Shown here: one piece after another, positions 6,577 through 57,177 of the stretch
How positions within the stretch are numbered: the stretch's first letter is position 1
Layout of the letters: each line of letters begins with the position of its first letter
Source of the DNA: Escherichia coli
GTDB taxonomy: Bacteria > Pseudomonadota > Gammaproteobacteria > Enterobacterales > Enterobacteriaceae
DNA length: 64,000 bases
Direction: 5' to 3' (one strand)
Assembly (NCBI GenBank): GCA_031701365.1
Contig: GCA_031701365.1_4118.1
Position numbers and translations under genes: made by a program
Notes under the pieces: generated by a model
The model's database searches: none
Seen by the model: only the letters and a program-made list of their open reading frames with translations
Told to the model about the DNA's origin: nothing

Positions 6577-6600
6577 AGCCTCCATCATGGAGGCTTTTAT
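6577..6600 (+). terminator. rho-independent terminator (AGCCTCCATG/CATGGAGGCT + TTTAT)
   Basis: Palindromic stem directly after stop at 6565. Confidence 0.6.
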
Positions 6601-6618
6601 CACATAAGGAAATGAAAT

Positions 6619-7170
6619 ATGATAGACCAAATTAAAATCCTTACAAAGCAAATCACTGATTTTCTTTCTGATAAAGATGGATTTAATACAGAAGTAAAAA
6701 TGCACGGTGTTAGTGTTGATGTAATTGCACCAAATGGTAATGTAACAAGTTACGACATGTATGAATTACTTCTTTATACTCTAGCAGTACGTAAACTAGG
6801 TAGTGATATTGAACTCAACATCAATACTGATGAAAGTGGAAATAAAATTTTTGCAATCAACACCAGTGCTAAATTCGATATCAGTACTGAAATTAAAAAA
6901 ATAAATGAAAGTTTTATTGGCTTTAAGCATGAATCAATTCAAAGTGTTTTTATTGGAAAGCAAACTTCTAATAGTGAATGCCCATATTGTGTAATGACTT
7001 TATATAAAGATGGAAACTGGATGCGTCAAGATTTAGTATTTGCTGAACTTCTGTATGCATTTACACATGAACTTAAAATCGAATTGGACGATAGTGTTTA
7101 TTGCTTTAAGAAAATTCGCAATATAACTAAAGATATACAAACCCAACTTAAAGAATTAAATGATAAATAA
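6619..7170 (+). CDS. hypothetical protein
   Basis: 183 aa ORF with RBS. Confidence 0.55.
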   Translation: MIDQIKILTKQITDFLSDKDGFNTEVKMHGVSVDVIAPNGNVTSYDMYELLLYTLAVRKLGSDIELNINTDESGNKIFAINTSAKFDISTEIKKINESFIGFKHESIQSVFIGKQTSNSECPYCVMTLYKDGNWMRQDLVFAELLYAFTHELKIELDDSVYCFKKIRNITKDIQTQLKELNDK

Positions 7171-7285
7171 ATATACCAGAAATGGTTAACATATCATGTT
7201 ACTTTCCTCCCTTACATAATAATGATGCGTTATTATATTTTCATTTTGTTCTTATTCCCCTTTTGGTACAAAATCATTTTAGTAC

Positions 7286-44901: not shown

Positions 44902-45093
44902 ATGTTGATTTATCAAGGTGATAATATTCGTGTTATGCAGCATCCCTACTTACAAATCTTTGATGTGCAGCAGTATATGGAAGGTGATGACCCAAGAACC
45001 TATGGTCGTAAGTATGATTACTTCACTGTAAAGCAGTGTAAAAATATTAACGAAGTACGACAATTAGTTCAAGAACTTCAAAACAAAGGTTGA
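44902..45093 (+). CDS. hypothetical protein
   Basis: ATG 44902; stop TGA inside the PeSL stem/-35. Confidence 0.45.
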   Translation: MLIYQGDNIRVMQHPYLQIFDVQQYMEGDDPRTYGRKYDYFTVKQCKNINEVRQLVQELQNKG

Positions 45094-50509: not shown

Positions 50510-50929
50510 ATGAAAAAGATTTTTTTAAGTATTATTTTAGTACTTTTTAGTTTTAATGTATATGCAACAGATGCTAAACAGGTTGCAAATACAGTAAAAG
50601 ATGTTATAGTAGATAATGCTCCTACATTAGAGGAAATTGGGGTAAAAACTTGTGATATAGTAATATATAATTTAGTTAATGATGAACGAGTTATGTTGAA
50701 TACGTATGAACAAGTAGTCCCATTGGTTGAATCTGGTGATGCTTTTAGCTTTACATATAAAGTTAAATTAACAGGAGGGGTTGAAGTTAATCTTGACATT
50801 GATACCGCTTCAGTACTAAAAGATAAACTAGGATATGTGTTCAATCGTATTCGTGAAGAAGGTCATCTTAAGTATGTTTATGAAAGTAAAATACTAAAAC
50901 GTGCAATAGTTATAGAAAACTGTAAATGA
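50510..50929 (+). CDS. secreted protein
   Basis: 'MKKIFLSIILVLFSFNVYA|TDA'. Confidence 0.5.
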   Translation: MKKIFLSIILVLFSFNVYATDAKQVANTVKDVIVDNAPTLEEIGVKTCDIVIYNLVNDERVMLNTYEQVVPLVESGDAFSFTYKVKLTGGVEVNLDIDTASVLKDKLGYVFNRIREEGHLKYVYESKILKRAIVIENCK

Positions 50930-50937
50930 TAATAAAA

Positions 50938-50970
50938 GGGTTGACTTCGGTCAGCCTTTTTTGTTATGAT
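50938..50970 (+). promoter_or_regulatory. PeSL-like cassette (GGGTTGAC-TTCG-GTCAGCC + T-run; TTGACT-18-TATGAT)
   Basis: Same stem-loop; -10 at 50965-70. Confidence 0.6.
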
Positions 50971-50998
50971 GTTGATATTAACTACAGAGGATAAAGTA

Positions 50999-51640
50999 AT
51001 GACTAAGCAAGAAATATTCAAAACTTTAATTGACATTTTGCGTCCATCAAAAACTCGTTGTGCGATGGAGTTTGATATTCCTTATGCTGAACGCGTAATC
51101 TTTCCACAAGTTAAAGCTGCTGGACTTACTTTGCTTGGAATGGGGATGTACTCTGTAGTAGTTGAACATAAAAACTATCCTGGGCGTGCATTTAAAGTAA
51201 CCACATCCCGTTGGGATGGTTTTCGTGCTTATGCAAAGTACTGCATTGAAAACGCAGGAACCAAGTTTCTTCCAGTGATCTACAGTGCAAACGAACAAGG
51301 AAACTTTGGATGGTATGAGATGGACAAGTACTATCCTATAATTAAACAAAAAAATAATTATGATGACTTTGTTAGTACTAAAATTGGAGATTTATATTCT
51401 TATGCACATGCTGGTCAGTACGCTACTTCAGTGAATGATATGCGTGGAAATTCTGAAGAGATTGCTATTGCGACGGTCGCTGCTAACATCATGAAAGAGT
51501 TTCACGGGCGTTTTGTACCAGACATTCATTCCAGTAATGTCATGATGGATAAAGATGGCAATGTATTCATTACTGATCCTCTTTCGTGTGATGTACGTAG
51601 AGAAATACCAGTTACTGAAGAAGATCCAGTTTTTTATTGA
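50999..51640 (+). CDS. protein-kinase-like fold protein (putative small kinase)
   Basis: Gly-loop-like 'LGMGMYSVVV', 'RAFKV' lysine, catalytic-loop-like 'DIHSSNVMMDKDGNVFITDP'. Confidence 0.45.
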   Translation: MTKQEIFKTLIDILRPSKTRCAMEFDIPYAERVIFPQVKAAGLTLLGMGMYSVVVEHKNYPGRAFKVTTSRWDGFRAYAKYCIENAGTKFLPVIYSANEQGNFGWYEMDKYYPIIKQKNNYDDFVSTKIGDLYSYAHAGQYATSVNDMRGNSEEIAIATVAANIMKEFHGRFVPDIHSSNVMMDKDGNVFITDPLSCDVRREIPVTEEDPVFY

Positions 51641-51701
51641 CAGAACTGATGTTCTGGTGTATTCTTAATAAACCATAAAAATTGCGGTAAAGGATAAAAT
51701 C

Positions 51702-51983
51702 ATGCGTTCATTTGAAAACTTAATAGGTAAGCATCTTTTATCTGAAATTGATGCAGACGTTAAAGAATTATCCAAATCAAAAAGTTACATTCATTTGGAT
51801 GAACTGTTTATTAAGTACGGTGAGATTGGTTTTAAGTCATTATTTGTTTTTACTATGAAAGTACATAGTTTAAAGTACTTCGATTTGAGTGCTAAAGATG
51901 GTGAACCGAATCTATATTACATGTATTACCTTAAGAACAAAGATGAAGCTAATACATTACTCTCTGAATATATATTGGGGTAA
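51702..51983 (+). CDS. hypothetical protein
   Basis: 93 aa. Confidence 0.5.
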   Translation: MRSFENLIGKHLLSEIDADVKELSKSKSYIHLDELFIKYGEIGFKSLFVFTMKVHSLKYFDLSAKDGEPNLYYMYYLKNKDEANTLLSEYILG

Positions 51984-51985
51984 AA

Positions 51986-52324
51986 ATGGAACAATATTTT
52001 GAATTAATAAACAAAGTATCATTTTATGTAGTATCTTTGGTTTGGGTGTATTATATGTTTTGCTACATTATTGCATTCTTCCGATACACTACTTTATATG
52101 AACGTATCTACTATGATGCCCCAATTTCATTCTTGATGTTTTGTGCATGTACGTGGGGAATATTAGAAGTACTGATATGTGGGTATAGTACTGATGAATT
52201 AAATCTGGTATCGGTCTTGACTGGGTTTTCATTTGTTGTTATGATAGCTGCCGTTCCAGTATGGTTGTTCTTTGGACTAGTTCATCGCATTGATATATGG
52301 CGTTCTAATATCCCTGAAAAGTAA
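51986..52324 (+). CDS. small 3-TM membrane protein family, member A
   Basis: 112 aa; basic patch after TM1; C-terminal 'RSNIPEK'. Confidence 0.6.
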   Translation: MEQYFELINKVSFYVVSLVWVYYMFCYIIAFFRYTTLYERIYYDAPISFLMFCACTWGILEVLICGYSTDELNLVSVLTGFSFVVMIAAVPVWLFFGLVHRIDIWRSNIPEK

Positions 52325-52333
52325 GGATTTGTA

Positions 52334-52675
52334 ATGATTTATTACACTAACATGTTTGCCTATGCTGTTGCTTGCATTTACATTGTTTACTTCTTATTCG
52401 GTGGAGTACTGTGCTTCTTTAAGTACAAAACGTTGTTCAACCGAATGTACCCAAATCATCCAATTGTAGTTGTACTTTTGATTCTTTCAGTTTCTCAAAT
52501 AATCGTTGAAACTACAATGGGTATCAGTAGTGTACATTATAGTTTTGGTACTATAGTAATTATTACTATGCTTATTGCATACATTTTAGTACTTGGATAT
52601 GGTATCTTTGGTAATATTGGTATGAAAATGTATCATCGAATTAAAACATTACGTGATAATCTACCGGAGCGTTGA
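52334..52675 (+). CDS. small 3-TM membrane protein family, member B
   Basis: 'FFKYKTLFNRMYP'; C-terminal 'RDNLPER'. Confidence 0.6.
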   Translation: MIYYTNMFAYAVACIYIVYFLFGGVLCFFKYKTLFNRMYPNHPIVVVLLILSVSQIIVETTMGISSVHYSFGTIVIITMLIAYILVLGYGIFGNIGMKMYHRIKTLRDNLPER

Positions 52676-52676
52676 T

Positions 52677-53021
52677 ATGTATAATTTGAACCTAATCTCA
52701 TATATTATAACAACACTGTTTACATTCTATGCCTTTGTTGGTATAATCCTACTGTACTTTAAATTTTATAAAGTGTTTAACCGTTTCTATCCTTCAATGG
52801 AGAATGAGTTTTTCTTTGTGTTGTACGTAGGTTACACATTAATGGCTACATGTTTCACTGTAGCCGATGGTGTCATCGGCATTAAAACTGATTCCCCAAA
52901 TGGTAGTACGCTGGTTGCATTTATTCTTACCGGATTCCTTGCAACTTATATTGCCTTCATTACAACATGGTCAGTGGTTGAATTTCTCTTGCGACTACGA
53001 AAGAATATGCCGAATCGATAG
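52677..53021 (+). CDS. small 3-TM membrane protein family, member C
   Basis: ATG 52677 after GGAG; 'YFKFYKVFNRFYP'; C-terminal 'RKNMPNR'. Confidence 0.6.
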   Translation: MYNLNLISYIITTLFTFYAFVGIILLYFKFYKVFNRFYPSMENEFFFVLYVGYTLMATCFTVADGVIGIKTDSPNGSTLVAFILTGFLATYIAFITTWSVVEFLLRLRKNMPNR

Positions 53022-53030
53022 GAGACATAT

Positions 53031-53285
53031 ATGTTTGCATTGCGTAACAAAAACACTAAAGAATTATTATGTATTGATACCGTATGGGATTGTGCGGGTT
53101 CAACTACAGTTCTTGAAGAAGGAACTGGATATTGCGTGTTTGTTGTACATGATAGGAATGAACTCGAATTATTACTTGCTGAGTTCAATGCTGGTGGTAA
53201 TCCTAACAGTACTGAATACCCTGAGATTATCAATCCAGCACCTCCAGGTTCATATGAAATCCTACCACTATGGGTGTTGAAATAA
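53031..53285 (+). CDS. hypothetical protein
   Basis: 84 aa. Confidence 0.5.
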   Translation: MFALRNKNTKELLCIDTVWDCAGSTTVLEEGTGYCVFVVHDRNELELLLAEFNAGGNPNSTEYPEIINPAPPGSYEILPLWVLK

Positions 53286-53665
53286 TGCGACAAATGTACA
53301 AAGTAACCGAGCTAAACAAGCGTCTGGTTAAACAATCTATGTTTGAGGATAAAGAGTCTTACTATAACTTTAAACGTGCTGTAGAGGCTGCTATCCACAT
53401 CCAGAAGCTTAAAGAACGTGGTTGTATTATTCTGGAAAATGGTTCGGAAGTTGTAACGGATGACTTTAGTGTAGCGTTTGATGTTTCACCTGATGGGACG
53501 CTATCAATGCCCCGCTTAGGAACTGGAAACATGACTGTTTGGGTTGGCTTCACTATGGGGAATGTACCTGGTACTGTGTACGTAGATGATGCGGAATTGA
53601 AAGACAGTTTCAAAAACTTATCTTATCTTGAACCACAATACGCACATGAAATGAATTTATTTTGA
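53285..53665 (+). CDS. hypothetical protein
   Basis: ATG 53285 (TAATG overlap). Confidence 0.5.
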   Translation: MRQMYKVTELNKRLVKQSMFEDKESYYNFKRAVEAAIHIQKLKERGCIILENGSEVVTDDFSVAFDVSPDGTLSMPRLGTGNMTVWVGFTMGNVPGTVYVDDAELKDSFKNLSYLEPQYAHEMNLF

Positions 53666-53666
53666 G

Positions 53667-53694
53667 TTGACAAACACATTCAGTACTGTATAAT
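53667..53694 (+). promoter_or_regulatory. CAGTACTG-class promoter (TTGACA-16-TATAAT)
   Basis: 'gttgacaaacacattcagtactgtataatgcttatcaa'. Confidence 0.6.
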
Positions 53695-53742
53695 GCTTAT
53701 CAAGGGGGATGAACTTCTCATCCCTACAATCGAGGAACTACC

Positions 53743-54297
53743 ATGATTACTTTTAAGAAAACTGCTAACCACATCCATGAAATCTACATTAACGGTCATA
53801 AAGCTGGCCTTCTTCGTTTACTCGCCCATCACCCTGATGCTACCGTATCTGATAATGAACCTAAAGATTGGCGTGTCTTTTTCTTTGGAAAGTACAGTGA
53901 TTTTCAAGTATCAAACCTGAAGAACATTCGTTCAGTATGCACGTTAACTGAAATTAAAGAAAAGTTAGCACAAGCATTGAAAACTAATCCAGATGGTGTT
54001 CTTCCACCTGATAACTTTGTAGAGAAAGGTTATGCCTTAGCTCATTTCAAAGATGGTACTATTCAATCTATCAGTACTGAATATGAATATCATTGGACTG
54101 AGTACTTCACTTATGGTTCGAGTAATACATTGATGGATTCACGTAGTAAATTGGAAGAAGTACTGACTCGTATGAATGAACGCGAGCGTCAGTTATATGA
54201 CAAACCAGAAATGTGGAGTTCAACTTACATTGACCGTATTGACTATGTTATTATGACTCCAATCTTTGACACTGCTTACTATGATTCTTTGAAATAA
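53743..54297 (+). CDS. hypothetical protein
   Basis: 184 aa. Confidence 0.55.
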   Translation: MITFKKTANHIHEIYINGHKAGLLRLLAHHPDATVSDNEPKDWRVFFFGKYSDFQVSNLKNIRSVCTLTEIKEKLAQALKTNPDGVLPPDNFVEKGYALAHFKDGTIQSISTEYEYHWTEYFTYGSSNTLMDSRSKLEEVLTRMNERERQLYDKPEMWSSTYIDRIDYVIMTPIFDTAYYDSLK

Positions 54298-54308
54298 GGA
54301 TAACTTAT

Positions 54309-54485
54309 ATGAAACTACGTACTCGTAATCGACTGATGGATGCACTGTACCATGAACAGCTTTCACTGAATGAAGTGAAGCGTCAGTTAATGTACACATA
54401 TCAGTTTCCCGCTCGCATTGCAAAACAACGTGCTAAAGAATTGCTGAAAGAAGCAATCGAGTACTGGGAATCTGATTCGTACTAA
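54309..54485 (+). CDS. small basic helical protein (58 aa)
   Basis: Hand-translated; below track cutoff. Confidence 0.35.
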   Translation: MKLRTRNRLMDALYHEQLSLNEVKRQLMYTYQFPARIAKQRAKELLKEAIEYWESDSY

Positions 54486-54513
54486 TTGTCACGTTAATTA
54501 AGTGAGGCGATAA

Positions 54514-54765
54514 ATGAAAATTTTATTAGTTCTAATACTACTAATTGTTTTACCATTTACGTTAGTATCCCCTGAACTTGCATGGAATGTGTTTGTGTAC
54601 TTACTATGTACTATGGTGGTAAATGGTATCTTGTTCTTAGTTCTATTCATAAATGGAATAGGACACGGTGGAGGATGGACCAGTACTGCTAATATTGTAC
54701 ATAAAACCACTATGTCTTTATTTGTAGTGTGGAATTTATTCTGGACTTGGTTTGTGTTCTTCTAA
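54514..54765 (+). CDS. small membrane protein
   Basis: 83 aa; 3 hydrophobic segments. Confidence 0.5.
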   Translation: MKILLVLILLIVLPFTLVSPELAWNVFVYLLCTMVVNGILFLVLFINGIGHGGGWTSTANIVHKTTMSLFVVWNLFWTWFVFF

Positions 54766-54773
54766 TTAAAAAT

Positions 54774-55145
54774 ATGAATATAGATTTGAAAGGTGCAACA
54801 CGAACTGTTATCCTCATTGGTGAATATGCTATCAAGATTCCAACCTTTAAAAGTTGGAAGCTATTCTTAACAGGGATGATAGCTAACCTCAATGAACGTT
54901 CGTGGATGCAGTACTCCAATCGTAGTGATACTGGTATCTGTCCTACTTTGTGGTCATCATGTACTGGACTAGTAACTGTACAGAAACGTTGTAAGCCAGT
55001 TCAACATAGGGGTTTATTTTGGGTGGAGTTGTGTGCTTTAGCATTGAATTCAGAGTTAAGTACTGACTTCTTTTATTCAGATGCGAAGCCAGAAAACTTT
55101 GGTTATCTGAATGGTAAGTTAGTTAAACTTGATTACGGAGATTAA
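54774..55145 (+). CDS. truncated protein-kinase-like ORF (N-lobe through DFG-like motif)
   Basis: 'GEYAIKIP' (beta3 Lys-like), 'SDAKPENFGYLNGKLVKLDYGD*' (D-x-K-P-x-N then DYG, stop directly after). Confidence 0.4.
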   Translation: MNIDLKGATRTVILIGEYAIKIPTFKSWKLFLTGMIANLNERSWMQYSNRSDTGICPTLWSSCTGLVTVQKRCKPVQHRGLFWVELCALALNSELSTDFFYSDAKPENFGYLNGKLVKLDYGD

Positions 55146-55227
55146 TATGTACGCGTGAAAGTCTAGTAGAAATTGAATACGACTAAGTAAACCAAGATTT
55201 TTTTGAAGTTACACAAAGGAACATAAC

Positions 55228-55422
55228 ATGTTATTAGTATATTCAAAGCGTTTCTGGATTTCATTTATTGTACTATCGCTAATCGGCTTCGGTGTGAGTA
55301 TACTCTTTTCGTGGGATGATTTGGATACATGGTATTATGAAGTTCCGTGGTACATGAAGATGGCTCCTTGTTACGCGGCATTGTTCGTGTCCTTCCTTAT
55401 TGTTGTCTTCAGTGAGGATTAG
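55228..55422 (+). CDS. small membrane protein
   Basis: 64 aa. Confidence 0.45.
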   Translation: MLLVYSKRFWISFIVLSLIGFGVSILFSWDDLDTWYYEVPWYMKMAPCYAALFVSFLIVVFSED

Positions 55423-55489
55423 TTGATGTAGTGGCAGTCAACTCGATGGGTATGAGATTGTTAAGTTGGGAATTATTGAGTAAAAGGTA

Positions 55490-55518
55490 TTGACACCGTT
55501 CCCATTTAACAGTATTAT
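55490..55518 (+). promoter_or_regulatory. sigma70-type promoter (TTGACA-17-TATTAT) with conserved leader
   Basis: Leader 'tgtacaccaagtaatgaggaat' nearly identical to 55859-55880. Confidence 0.5.
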
Positions 55519-55555
55519 GTATGTACACCAAGTAATGAGGAATAGGAGTGAAACA

Positions 55556-55816
55556 ATGTTAACACCTGAACAGCAAGAAGCCCAAATCGCTAAACACAGC
55601 CTTGACTTTCCTAACGGTATGACAGTTAAAGAACTGAAAGCACTCATTGCTGATTGGCCTGAAACTAACCAATACGGTGAAGATACTAAAGTACTGATCA
55701 GCACTCAAGATGGTATTGATTGCACAGTGCATTCATCTTGGTGCAGTGAAGTTCGTTTCAATGCAAACGATGAACTGGTATATGATCTTAGTTTGGATGT
55801 AGAAGACCGCAATTAA
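55556..55816 (+). CDS. hypothetical protein
   Basis: ATG 55556 after GAGGAATAGGAG. Confidence 0.5.
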   Translation: MLTPEQQEAQIAKHSLDFPNGMTVKELKALIADWPETNQYGEDTKVLISTQDGIDCTVHSSWCSEVRFNANDELVYDLSLDVEDRN

Positions 55817-55887
55817 GACAAATAAAAGGATTGACACTAGTTCTATAGTATTGTAACATGTGTACACCAAATAATGAGGAATCTGAA

Positions 55888-56247
55888 ATGGCATCTTTAA
55901 CTGAAATCACTGAACTGAATCCACTGGCAATTAGTACTGTTCAACGCACAAAGACGTTTTACTTTCGTCCAGTCGATGGTTGGAAGCGTGGTGAGAATGG
56001 CGACTATCGTGTTCTGGAAGATAATCTCGTTGAACGTGTGAATTCAGAACTTAATGTTTATGAAGGTGTTACGGTTGTACGTTCACATTCTCGTTATTTC
56101 GAATACTACATTGAGTCTTCATCGGTAAATGAAAACCGTTCATTTTCTGTTGACAATACTGATGCACTGCGTAATGCAGTATCTATTTTGTGCAATATTG
56201 CAGAAGAAATGGGTTTAACTATCGTAACGATTGGTGAGTTAGCATGA
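55888..56247 (+). CDS. hypothetical protein
   Basis: ATG 55888 after duplicated leader/RBS cassette. Confidence 0.5.
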   Translation: MASLTEITELNPLAISTVQRTKTFYFRPVDGWKRGENGDYRVLEDNLVERVNSELNVYEGVTVVRSHSRYFEYYIESSSVNENRSFSVDNTDALRNAVSILCNIAEEMGLTIVTIGELA

Positions 56248-56441
56248 TTAAAACTTTTATTCTTACAATGGTATTTGGTTCTTATGGTTATGGTGGTGGT
56301 GTGGCGACCGTTGAGTATCCAGTATACGAAGATTGCAAAGCTGCTGCTGAAGTGTTTGTAAAAACAACTAAAGATTTGGCTACCGTTACTGATGCCAAAG
56401 CGTGGTGTACAACTAAAAATACACCAGAAACTAAGAAGTAA
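56244..56441 (+). CDS. small secreted/membrane protein
   Basis: 65 aa; hydrophobic N-terminus then Gly-rich. Confidence 0.45.
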   Translation: MIKTFILTMVFGSYGYGGGVATVEYPVYEDCKAAAEVFVKTTKDLATVTDAKAWCTTKNTPETKK

Positions 56442-56448
56442 AAAATAA

Positions 56449-56482
56449 AGGGTTGACAGTAGTCATCCCTTTTTGCTATAAT
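56449..56482 (+). promoter_or_regulatory. PeSL-like cassette (AGGGTTGAC-AGTA-GTCATCCCT + T-run; TTGACA-18-TATAAT)
   Basis: Directly upstream of denV; shares 'ctttttgctataat(c/t)atttcatc' with copies 7 and 8. Confidence 0.65.
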
Positions 56483-56510
56483 CATTTCATCGAAACGAGA
56501 GGATGAAAAC

Positions 56511-56948
56511 ATGACACGCATTAACTTAGTACACGTTAAAGAACTTGCTGACCAACATCTGATGGCTGAATACCGTGAACTCCCACGTGTGTTTGGTGCT
56601 GTACAAAAACATGTTCAAGCAGGTAAACGAGTACGTGATTTCAAAATTAACAGTACTTATCTGTTAGGTTCAGGTCATGTAACATTCTTCTATAACAAGT
56701 TATTGTACTTACAGAAGCGTCATATTGATATTGTTAACGAATGTTTGCGTCGTGGTATGAAGATTCAAAACATTGAAGTAAACGACATTAGCAGCTTCCC
56801 TGCGGAGTTTTGCCAGGACTATGTGCCATCTGATTCAGAGATTAAAATGTCTCGTGACCGTTTGATTGAGAAGCTCCAGATGAAGCCTACGTGGTATAAG
56901 TTTACTGATGTTGAGTTACCTGAGTACTATACCGAGATGATTAAGTAA
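56511..56948 (+). CDS. denV: endonuclease V, pyrimidine-dimer DNA glycosylase (T4 DenV homolog)
   Basis: 145 aa; 'MTRINL...[33 protein letters not shown]...GHVTFFY' matches the T4 endonuclease V sequence as I recall it, including N-terminal Thr2 and catalytic-region residues. Confidence 0.9.
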
Positions 56949-56961
56949 ATAGAGATTAAAA

Positions 56962-57177
56962 ATGATACTTGACACTTCTAGATACAAGTTTTCAAACAAC
57001 CAGAACACAAATAGAACACACACCATGAAATGGTGGTTGAGACATCGTGATAAGGTTTTGAACACACACACCGTATCAGAACTTATCTCGGCAATTATAG
57101 AATTAAGCGATGATGATTGTGTTGAAAACAATATATATAATTTATGGAATGATTATATTAACATAACTAAGGGTTGA
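56962..57177 (+). CDS. hypothetical protein
   Basis: 71 aa. Confidence 0.45.
   Translation: MILDTSRYKFSNNQNTNRTHTMKWWLRHRDKVLNTHTVSELISAIIELSDDDCVENNIYNLWNDYINITKG

Follow-up and report, generated by a model that had tools for sequence, protein, structure and literature searches.

An intact, conserved 123-residue gene with a predicted kinase-like fold that ends at the DFG-equivalent motif: a putative mini-kinase of Asteriusvirus jumbo coliphages

The DNA considered here, termed the window, is a stretch of 64,000 nucleotides from an Escherichia coli assembly (GCA_031701365.1, contig GCA_031701365.1_4118.1). Positions 50900–55500 share 98.5% identity with Escherichia phage 121Q and with further jumbo phages of Asteriusvirus (G17, Sharanji, phAPEC6, PBECO4); judged by its sequence, the window belongs to a jumbo coliphage of the 121Q/PBECO4 type (Asteriusvirus). 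All genes are on the + strand and the GC content is ~0.32. Two open reading frames (ORFs) with protein-kinase-like motifs, termed ORF1 (50999–51640) and ORF2 (54774–55145), are found ~3 kb apart, both on the + strand, and each of the two families is represented only once in the window. The main subject here is ORF2. It is a conserved gene whose product is predicted to have a protein-kinase-like fold and which stops one residue after the equivalent of the DFG motif. An earlier note on this DNA had described both ORFs as kinase-like, had likened them to T7 gp0.7, and had suggested that ORF2 is truncated and might be a pseudogene or part of a split kinase. Both ORFs and every motif quoted for them are present, on the + strand, where they had been placed. 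The kinase-like folds, the gp0.7 analogy (for ORF1) and the lack of a C-lobe in ORF2 were borne out, but truncation, a pseudogene and a split kinase were not.

The features of ORF2 are the following.

54774..55145, + strand: ORF2, putative 123-residue mini-kinase (PHROG 4301) with Hanks subdomains I–VII only; homolog of 121Q gp215 and Sharanji WNN14422.1
54792..54803, + strand: G7-A-T-R10, the predicted β1-β2 turn at the glycine-rich-loop position; G7 and R10 are invariant family-wide
54834..54836, + strand: K21, in AIKIP of predicted strand β3 (GEYAIKIP is residues 16–23); invariant, aligns with PKA K72
54894..54896, + strand: E41, the αC-type Glu in the long helix 28–43; invariant, aligns with PKA E91
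55080..55097, + strand: putative catalytic loop D103-A-K105-P-E-N108; aligns with PKA D166, K168 and N171
55131..55145, + strand: D120-Y-G122, the DFG equivalent, then D123 and the TAA stop codon; aligns with PKA D184-F-G

ORF2 begins with the ATG at 54774. Its residues 102–123 are SDAKPENFGYLNGKLVKLDYGD, and the TAA at 55143–55145 comes directly next. The only PHROG matched is 4301 ("unknown function"; E=1.1e-43), and truncation was first suspected because ORF2 covers just positions 40–167 of this 225-position profile. The surplus positions stem from a minority of members that are extended at the N-terminus or carry unrelated tails at the C-terminus. The stop codon and the 123-residue length are the same in 121Q, phAPEC6, ph0011 and UE-S1, and 15 homologs of 45–98% identity are all 118–127 residues long, with a C-terminus of KLD[YFA]G plus one residue. 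An exhaustive profile search yielded 1,213 cluster representatives of the family at E≤0.001 and 644 at E≤1e-10. The best 160 representatives have a median length of 123 residues, and among the best representatives with a complete C-terminal match, the C-terminus lies at most two residues from the profile end in 133 of 156 (85%). Longer relatives are few and have 205–267 residues, e.g. RP12 ORF186 (209 residues) and a Kc263 protein (267 residues). A true C-lobe in the longer relatives (Kc263, RP12, P0153, P0177) was considered and rejected, as their tails have no Pfam domain and are not conserved; PHROG 4301 is the only PHROG matched by RP12 ORF186 and by the Kc263, JS10 and Salmonella prophage relatives. 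Within the genus, the ratio of nonsynonymous to synonymous substitution rates (dN/dS) of ORF2 is 0.07–0.20, with dS up to 0.57. ORF2 is an intact conserved gene under purifying selection; it is not a pseudogene, and it is not one half of a gene that has been split. The form of ~120 residues ending at DxG, which had been taken for a truncated or decayed kinase, is the native and conserved one.

In 121Q and phAPEC6, gp216 begins 1 nucleotide after the ORF2 stop codon (TAATATG), and in two metagenomic phages an ORF of 69–73 residues is found directly downstream of the ORF2 homolog. gp216 constitutes a separate family, PHROG 8563. As candidates for a missing lobe, gp216 and the other downstream ORFs were rejected; the downstream ORFs found elsewhere are related neither to gp216 nor to one another. 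ORF 55228–55422 of the window, which had also been proposed to supply missing elements, encodes a 64-residue protein with two hydrophobic segments that is a homolog of 121Q gp218. Around ORF2 homologs, no neighbour family recurs in at least 3 of 21 dereplicated locus groups, and no downstream gene is conserved: what lies directly downstream ranges from no gene to one of 531 residues, on either strand. In Salmonella lambdoid prophages, the homolog is the only gene of a moron slot that is flanked by the lysis cassette and terminase Nu1, with gaps of ~270 bp and ~400 bp around it. An adjacent-gene partner for ORF2 is refuted; a non-adjacent phage or host partner is possible. A general link to nucleic-acid repair genes was also considered and dropped, with denV adjacency (121Q-type, PaMx25) in 2 of the 21 groups and rnlB adjacency (JS10) in 1.

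The region directly after ORF2 in the window (55148–55485) displays a gene replacement. gp216 is reduced to its first 8 nucleotides (ATGTACGC) and its last ~40 nucleotides (55447–55485), and its interior is replaced by the gp218 homolog at 55228–55422, a gene that in 121Q is located beyond denV.

The AlphaFold2 (AF2) model of ORF2, made from a 15-sequence alignment, is confident and has a predicted local distance difference test score (pLDDT) of 90.1 and a predicted template modelling score (pTM) of 0.80. It displays β strands at residues 2–4, 10–15 and 18–23, a helix at 28–43 and β strands at 58–61 and 68–71, followed in the C-terminal part by a helix at 79–92, a short helix at 97–101 and β strands at 109–112 and 115–118. 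In a Foldseek comparison with BFVD, one of the checks proposed by the earlier note, phage relatives of ORF2 rank first, followed by giant-virus and poxvirus Ser/Thr kinases. The RP12 phage relative among these matches bears the name "Protein kinase domain-containing protein". A protein-kinase-like fold is likewise predicted for ORF1. The ORF2 model has the predicted hallmarks of a protein-kinase-like fold (PKL fold), namely an N-lobe sheet with αC, a core of catalytic and Mg loops, and likeness to solved kinases. The conserved PKL residues can be assigned from the sequence: a β3 Lys, an αC Glu, the catalytic-loop pair and the DFG Asp. Subdomains VIII–XI of the canonical Hanks domain are absent. 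Everything past subdomain VII is missing, i.e. the activation segment, the APE motif, αF and αG–I, and a single residue follows the DFG-like motif. The αD helix is considered absent as well because only ~7 residues separate β5 from the next helix. The conserved parts of the protein are the N-lobe (residues 1–71) and the catalytic and Mg loops (99–123), and the connecting helix region is variable. The glycine loop has the form G-x-[TS]-R with an invariant Arg.

The conservation of the motifs is far beyond chance. Among 161 diverse family members, of which 135 have K105, the conservation of G7, R10, K21, E41, G110 and D120 is 100%, counted over ungapped cells. Position 103 is D in 103 members and E in 49, and position 108 is N in 108 and S in 45. 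These two positions co-vary (101 D..N, 41 E..S and 7 mixed; Fisher p~1e-28, a value inflated by phylogenetic non-independence). About 30% of the family thus carries a strictly coupled Glu...Ser in place of the catalytic-loop Asp...Asn, an unusual compensated active-site variant. A sequence-only hhalign comparison of a 60-member ORF2 profile with PKA gave one collinear alignment of 114 columns. The PKA sequence used was validated as identical in extent to 1ATP_E. In this alignment K21, E41, D103, K105, N108, D120 and G122 fall on PKA K72, E91, D166, K168, N171, D184 and G186; it is counted only as agreement of register because its statistic is not significant alone. A sub-threshold match to the ABC1-kinase Pfam model (E=0.025) lies over the catalytic loop of RP12 ORF186.

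We infer for ORF2 ATP binding, phosphotransfer, a protein substrate, early timing and a biological role, as follows. The Asteriusvirus genome would carry two unrelated kinase-fold genes within an accessory-gene cluster that is probably expressed early. ORF2 would be a native, self-contained mini-kinase of ~14 kDa, formed by a five-stranded N-lobe with αC, a connecting helix, the catalytic loop and a Mg-binding DxG. It would bind ATP-Mg via K21-E41, D/E103, N/S108 and D120 and transfer phosphate. Ser/Thr protein-kinase chemistry is suggested by the D-x-K-P-x-N motif, in which Lys is at +2. With no activation segment, P+1 loop or αF–αI, the catalytic cleft would always be open and free of regulation. 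The substrate may be chosen by direct docking on the exposed face of ORF2, or a host protein may stabilise the core, as E2~ubiquitin does for OspG. ORF2 would most likely modify host proteins in takeover or counter-defence and be used early in infection. On balance, the sequence and the model favour an active phosphotransferase, probably of proteins. A broader proposal, offered tentatively, is that PHROG 4301 comprises the smallest known autonomous kinase-fold enzymes, of ~120 residues, and that these are a widespread phage toolkit of open phosphotransferases which work alone or with a host surrogate C-lobe.

It is conceivable, though unlikely, that ORF2 is a non-catalytic nucleotide binder, i.e. 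a pseudokinase-like scaffold, a decoy, or a binder that acts on a host factor or ligand. Every substrate-binding element of the C-lobe is missing, Glu/Ser stands in for Asp/Asn in ~30% of the family, K105 is missing in some of the divergent members, and some neighbourhoods are of an accessory or anti-defence type, e.g. near a Tad2-like gene in one metagenomic contig (L005), all of which would suit a binder. However, pure binders usually lose some catalytic residues, whereas here the full catalytic set is kept or compensated across the 161 diverse members, and the co-variation of D-N versus E-S suggests a reactive centre whose geometry has been maintained. A non-protein substrate (a small molecule, a nucleotide signal, or an RNA/DNA end or 2′-OH, as for ArkI) or another chemistry (AMPylation, glutamylation, capping) is rather improbable, given that adjacency to repair genes is not general (denV in 2/21 groups, rnlB in 1/21) and that D-x-K-P-x-N with Lys at +2 is typical of Ser/Thr protein kinases and not of the APH, choline-kinase or RIO types.

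The two readings that concern the integrity of the gene fare worse. In one, ORF2 is half of a split kinase whose C-lobe is supplied by an adjacent gene, either gp216 or ORF 55228–55422. The start of gp216 1 nucleotide past the ORF2 stop codon in 121Q and phAPEC6 would suit such an arrangement, as would the 69–73-residue ORF that comes next in two metagenomic phages, but gp216 has been lost from the window with ORF2 left intact, it belongs to a PHROG of its own (8563), no neighbour is conserved in the 21 groups, and the Salmonella prophage copies are alone; a split kinase is very improbable. In the other, ORF2 is a pseudogene remnant of a full-length kinase, which could account for the match to positions 40–167 only of PHROG 4301 and for the few relatives of 205–267 residues. 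The extra profile positions are, however, tails of minority members, with no kinase C-lobe and no Pfam domain, and the stop codon has the same position in homologs of 98% to 45% identity, and in 85% of the diverse representatives, at a dN/dS of 0.07–0.20. The pseudogene reading is refuted because of this conservation and selection, and is hardly credible. Jointly, the split-gene and pseudogene readings are left with very little probability.

Several points weigh against the reading of ORF2 as an active mini-kinase. A kinase core without αF is, to our knowledge, unprecedented, and such a core may not be stable or active alone. No Pfam kinase model was matched by the 60 family members searched, and no significant match to PDB sequences was found for the family; the same holds for NCBIfam and PADLOC. 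The hhalign match to PKA is not significant alone (P=0.06, probability 0.9%). The fold rests on an AF2 model made from 15 sequences, and the Lys-Glu and Asp geometry is presumed. Glu/Ser in place of the catalytic Asp/Asn, found in about one-third of the family, is unusual for active protein kinases, and K105 is missing in some divergent members. Early expression rests on matches to promoter consensus sequences, whose overall count is not above that of shuffles.

Among described kinases, OspG and NleH are active although they miss subdomains VIII–XI; in the case of OspG, a bound host protein brings about the activation (PMC12756638). In their lack of these subdomains they are the nearest precedents for ORF2, but they are much larger, and the solved chain of OspG has 169 residues versus 123 in ORF2. 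OspG retains helices after the DFG region, where ORF2 has nothing. OspG and NleH (NleH1/2) are type III effectors that work in eukaryotic cells, with E2~ubiquitin as a binding partner, whereas the ORF2 family is found in phages of Proteobacteria. In comparison with ORF2, OspG scores no better than generic kinases, and therefore a specific OspG-ORF2 kinship is not shown. The solved chains of HopBF1, the archaeal RNA kinase ArkI/Ark1, Bud32 and RIO all have at least 170 residues, and these proteins retain helices of the C-lobe beyond the Mg-binding Asp; sequence searches of PDB and Pfam detected no relationship of ORF2 to any of them. Canonical Hanks Ser/Thr kinases such as PKA and PknB have GxGxxG where ORF2 has G-x-[TS]-R, and ORF2 has no match to Pfam Pkinase. 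It also lacks the αD helix, activation segment, APE motif and αF–αI of the PKA/PknB type. The T7K family resembles ORF2 in being phage-encoded, of kinase fold and without canonical regulation, but no homology is detectable, and ORF2 does not match PHROG 2828 or 15752. The same distance is seen between the two genes of the window. ORF2 is ~90 residues shorter than ORF1 and has DxKPxN...DYG, as in eukaryotic protein kinases (ePKs), versus DxHxxN...DP in ORF1, and paralogy between them is not detectable (hhalign probability 1%). ORF2 would be the smallest kinase-like protein that we found described, and a more extreme variant of the minimal protein-kinase-like enzymes. In the literature on minimal, truncated and pseudo-kinases in phages, of which coverage was incomplete, no name, domain model or paper for the ORF2 family was found; two seeming leads to pseudokinases came from reference lists only.

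Carriers of the family are phages, a prophage and unclassified metagenomic contigs, in which it occupies accessory-gene positions. A tblastn search found it in 120 cultured-phage records, and nearly all copies are termed "hypothetical protein". The phages include Asteriusvirus, other jumbo phages (OBP, RP12, Miami, Kc263), T4-like phages and Aeromonas phages, and there are further carriers in a 68-kb coliphage and in Pseudomonas and Xanthomonas phages of ~58 kb. In T4-like genomes the gene is found at two different plastic sites, upstream of rnlB (JS10) and between gene 1/nuclease inhibitor and the tRNA cluster (G10400). A profile search of a set of 5.8 billion proteins gave 90 matches, all 90 unnamed and without Pfam domains. 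Scans of genome contigs with narrow patterns found no relatives, which is a weak negative.

Some individual carriers of the family are worth describing. In the phAPEC6 GenBank record the ORF2 homolog and the preceding gp214 homolog are unannotated (6585–7249 of locus L002). Aeromonas phage PS1 (L048) has mini-kinase matches in three separate places, and therefore mini-kinase paralogs can coexist in one genome. In the metagenomic phage contig L005, of 64 kb, the mini-kinase (2159–2524) is five genes downstream of a Tad2-like (anti-Thoeris) gene. The run also has ASCH, DUF4326 and HD-domain genes, which hints at an anti-defence or accessory island.

In the kinase field, the C-lobe and above all helix αF are regarded as the scaffold for the catalytic machinery. 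If ORF2 is an active mini-kinase, an abundant conserved family that retains all residues for ATP and phosphotransfer and yet stops at DFG would test this view. The protein-kinase fold would have its minimal catalytic unit in this core, which might be useful in protein engineering. Phages would then have, beside T7K, a second, unrelated and far more widespread type of kinase for phosphorylation-based takeover and anti-defence. The proposal would also provide a testable function for a protein termed "hypothetical" in almost every one of the 120 cultured-phage records with a match.

ORF1 is a kinase of a known type. Its features are the following.

50999..51640, + strand: ORF1, 213-residue protein kinase of T7K (gp0.7) type from the jumbophage clade, lacking the shut-off domain; homolog of 121Q gp205 and Sharanji WNN14432.1
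51134..51196, + strand: Gly-rich loop LGMGMYSVVV (residues 46–55) through the β3-type Lys K66 (51194–51196, in RAFKV); G47 and G49 are invariant
51521..51580, + strand: catalytic loop D175-I-H-S-S-N180 through the DFG equivalent I-T-D193-P; the "DP" variant is reported for T7K homologues

The longest form of ORF1 is 50966–51640. The ATG at 50999 is taken as the start because a sigma70-like element and GAGGA lie just upstream and because homologs have 213 residues and begin with MTKQ/N; the alternative ATG at 50966 falls within the −10 region of a hairpin-plus-promoter element. ORF1 matches PHROG 15752 ("protein kinase...", E=1e-91) and PHROG 2828 (Ser/Thr kinase, E=7.8e-17), and its homologs carry the precomputed Pfam tag PF27024. 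PHROG 2828 encompasses T7K, i.e. T7 gp0.7 (PMC13645617, methods), and the Sharanji genome paper names the ORF1 ortholog WNN14432.1 a T7-kinase homolog, so the comparison with gp0.7 was right for this gene. G47, G49, K66, D175, H177, N180 and D193 are invariant among 20 homologs of 40–65% identity, and the dN/dS within the genus is 0.03–0.04. Residues 175–194 are DIHSSNVMMDKDGNVFITDP. ORF1 reads I-T-D-P-L, and 19 residues remain after the DP motif. T7K homologues of jumbophages, including that of Escherichia phage G17, have lost the shut-off (SO) domain and have DP(V) instead of DFG, without conservation of the Val (PMC13645617). The C-terminal SO/DNA-binding domain is absent from ORF1 too, which is compatible with T7K membership because the same architecture is reported for the jumbophage clade. 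With its DP variant and no SO domain, ORF1 falls, by sequence, among the T7K/jumbophage homologues as described (PHROG 2828/15752; PF27024), and as a known T7K homologue it is ordinary by itself. As the jumbophage version of the T7 kinase, it would by homology presumably phosphorylate host proteins.

The Sharanji paper lists a further "protein kinase" of unknown function, WNN14351.1, ~70 genes from the ORF2 homolog. It was considered as the ORF2 homolog of Sharanji and rejected, since that homolog is WNN14422.1. Asteriusvirus genomes may encode three kinase-like proteins because WNN14351.1 is an additional gene.

Two putative transcription signals are relevant to the kinase genes.

50937..50975, + strand: hairpin (GGGTTGAC-TTCG-GTCAGCC and a T-run) with an embedded sigma70-like promoter, directly upstream of ORF1
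53667..53694, + strand: perfect sigma70 consensus TTGACA-16-TATAAT; a consensus match only

In the element upstream of ORF1, the −35 sequence TTGACT (50941–50946) and the −10 sequence TATGAT (50965–50970) have a spacing of 18, and GAGGA and then the ATG at 50999 follow. The consensus at 53667–53694 is a candidate promoter of a four-gene run (53743–55145) in which ORF2 is the fourth and last gene. An 18-nucleotide element, GGTTGACTTCGGTCAGCC, is found in seven copies in the window, at 45088, 48330, 48513, 49854, 50939, 57172 and 59199, all on the + strand, versus a chance expectation of 0.01. Its features are a GC-rich hairpin, whose loop is TTCG, and a T-run; the stem holds the −35 sequence TTGACT, with a −10-like hexamer ~18 nucleotides further on. 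In 121Q and phAPEC6 the element is found upstream of denV too. Its sequence resembles an intrinsic terminator and an early promoter in one, dividing gene cassettes.

The interval between ORF2 and denV (the pyrimidine-dimer glycosylase gene, ORF 56511–56948) is a mosaic hotspot in Asteriusvirus, and ORF2 is retained throughout. No phage record covers at least 80% of window positions 54700–57000; coverage is highest for JNE01 (75%, in 5 pieces) and vB_Ec-M-J (77%). In the window this interval also has ORFs 55490–55816, 55858–56247 and 56244–56441, and in several relatives an HNH endonuclease is inserted between ORF2 and denV. Between the two kinase genes of the window are three diverged tandem paralogs of ~112–114 residues (51986–52324, 52334–52675 and 52677–53021), the counterparts of 121Q gp207–209. 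They are multi-pass hydrophobic proteins that align collinearly over their full length at 21–25% identity, and all share a C-terminal R-x-N-[ILM]-P-[EN]-[KR] motif.

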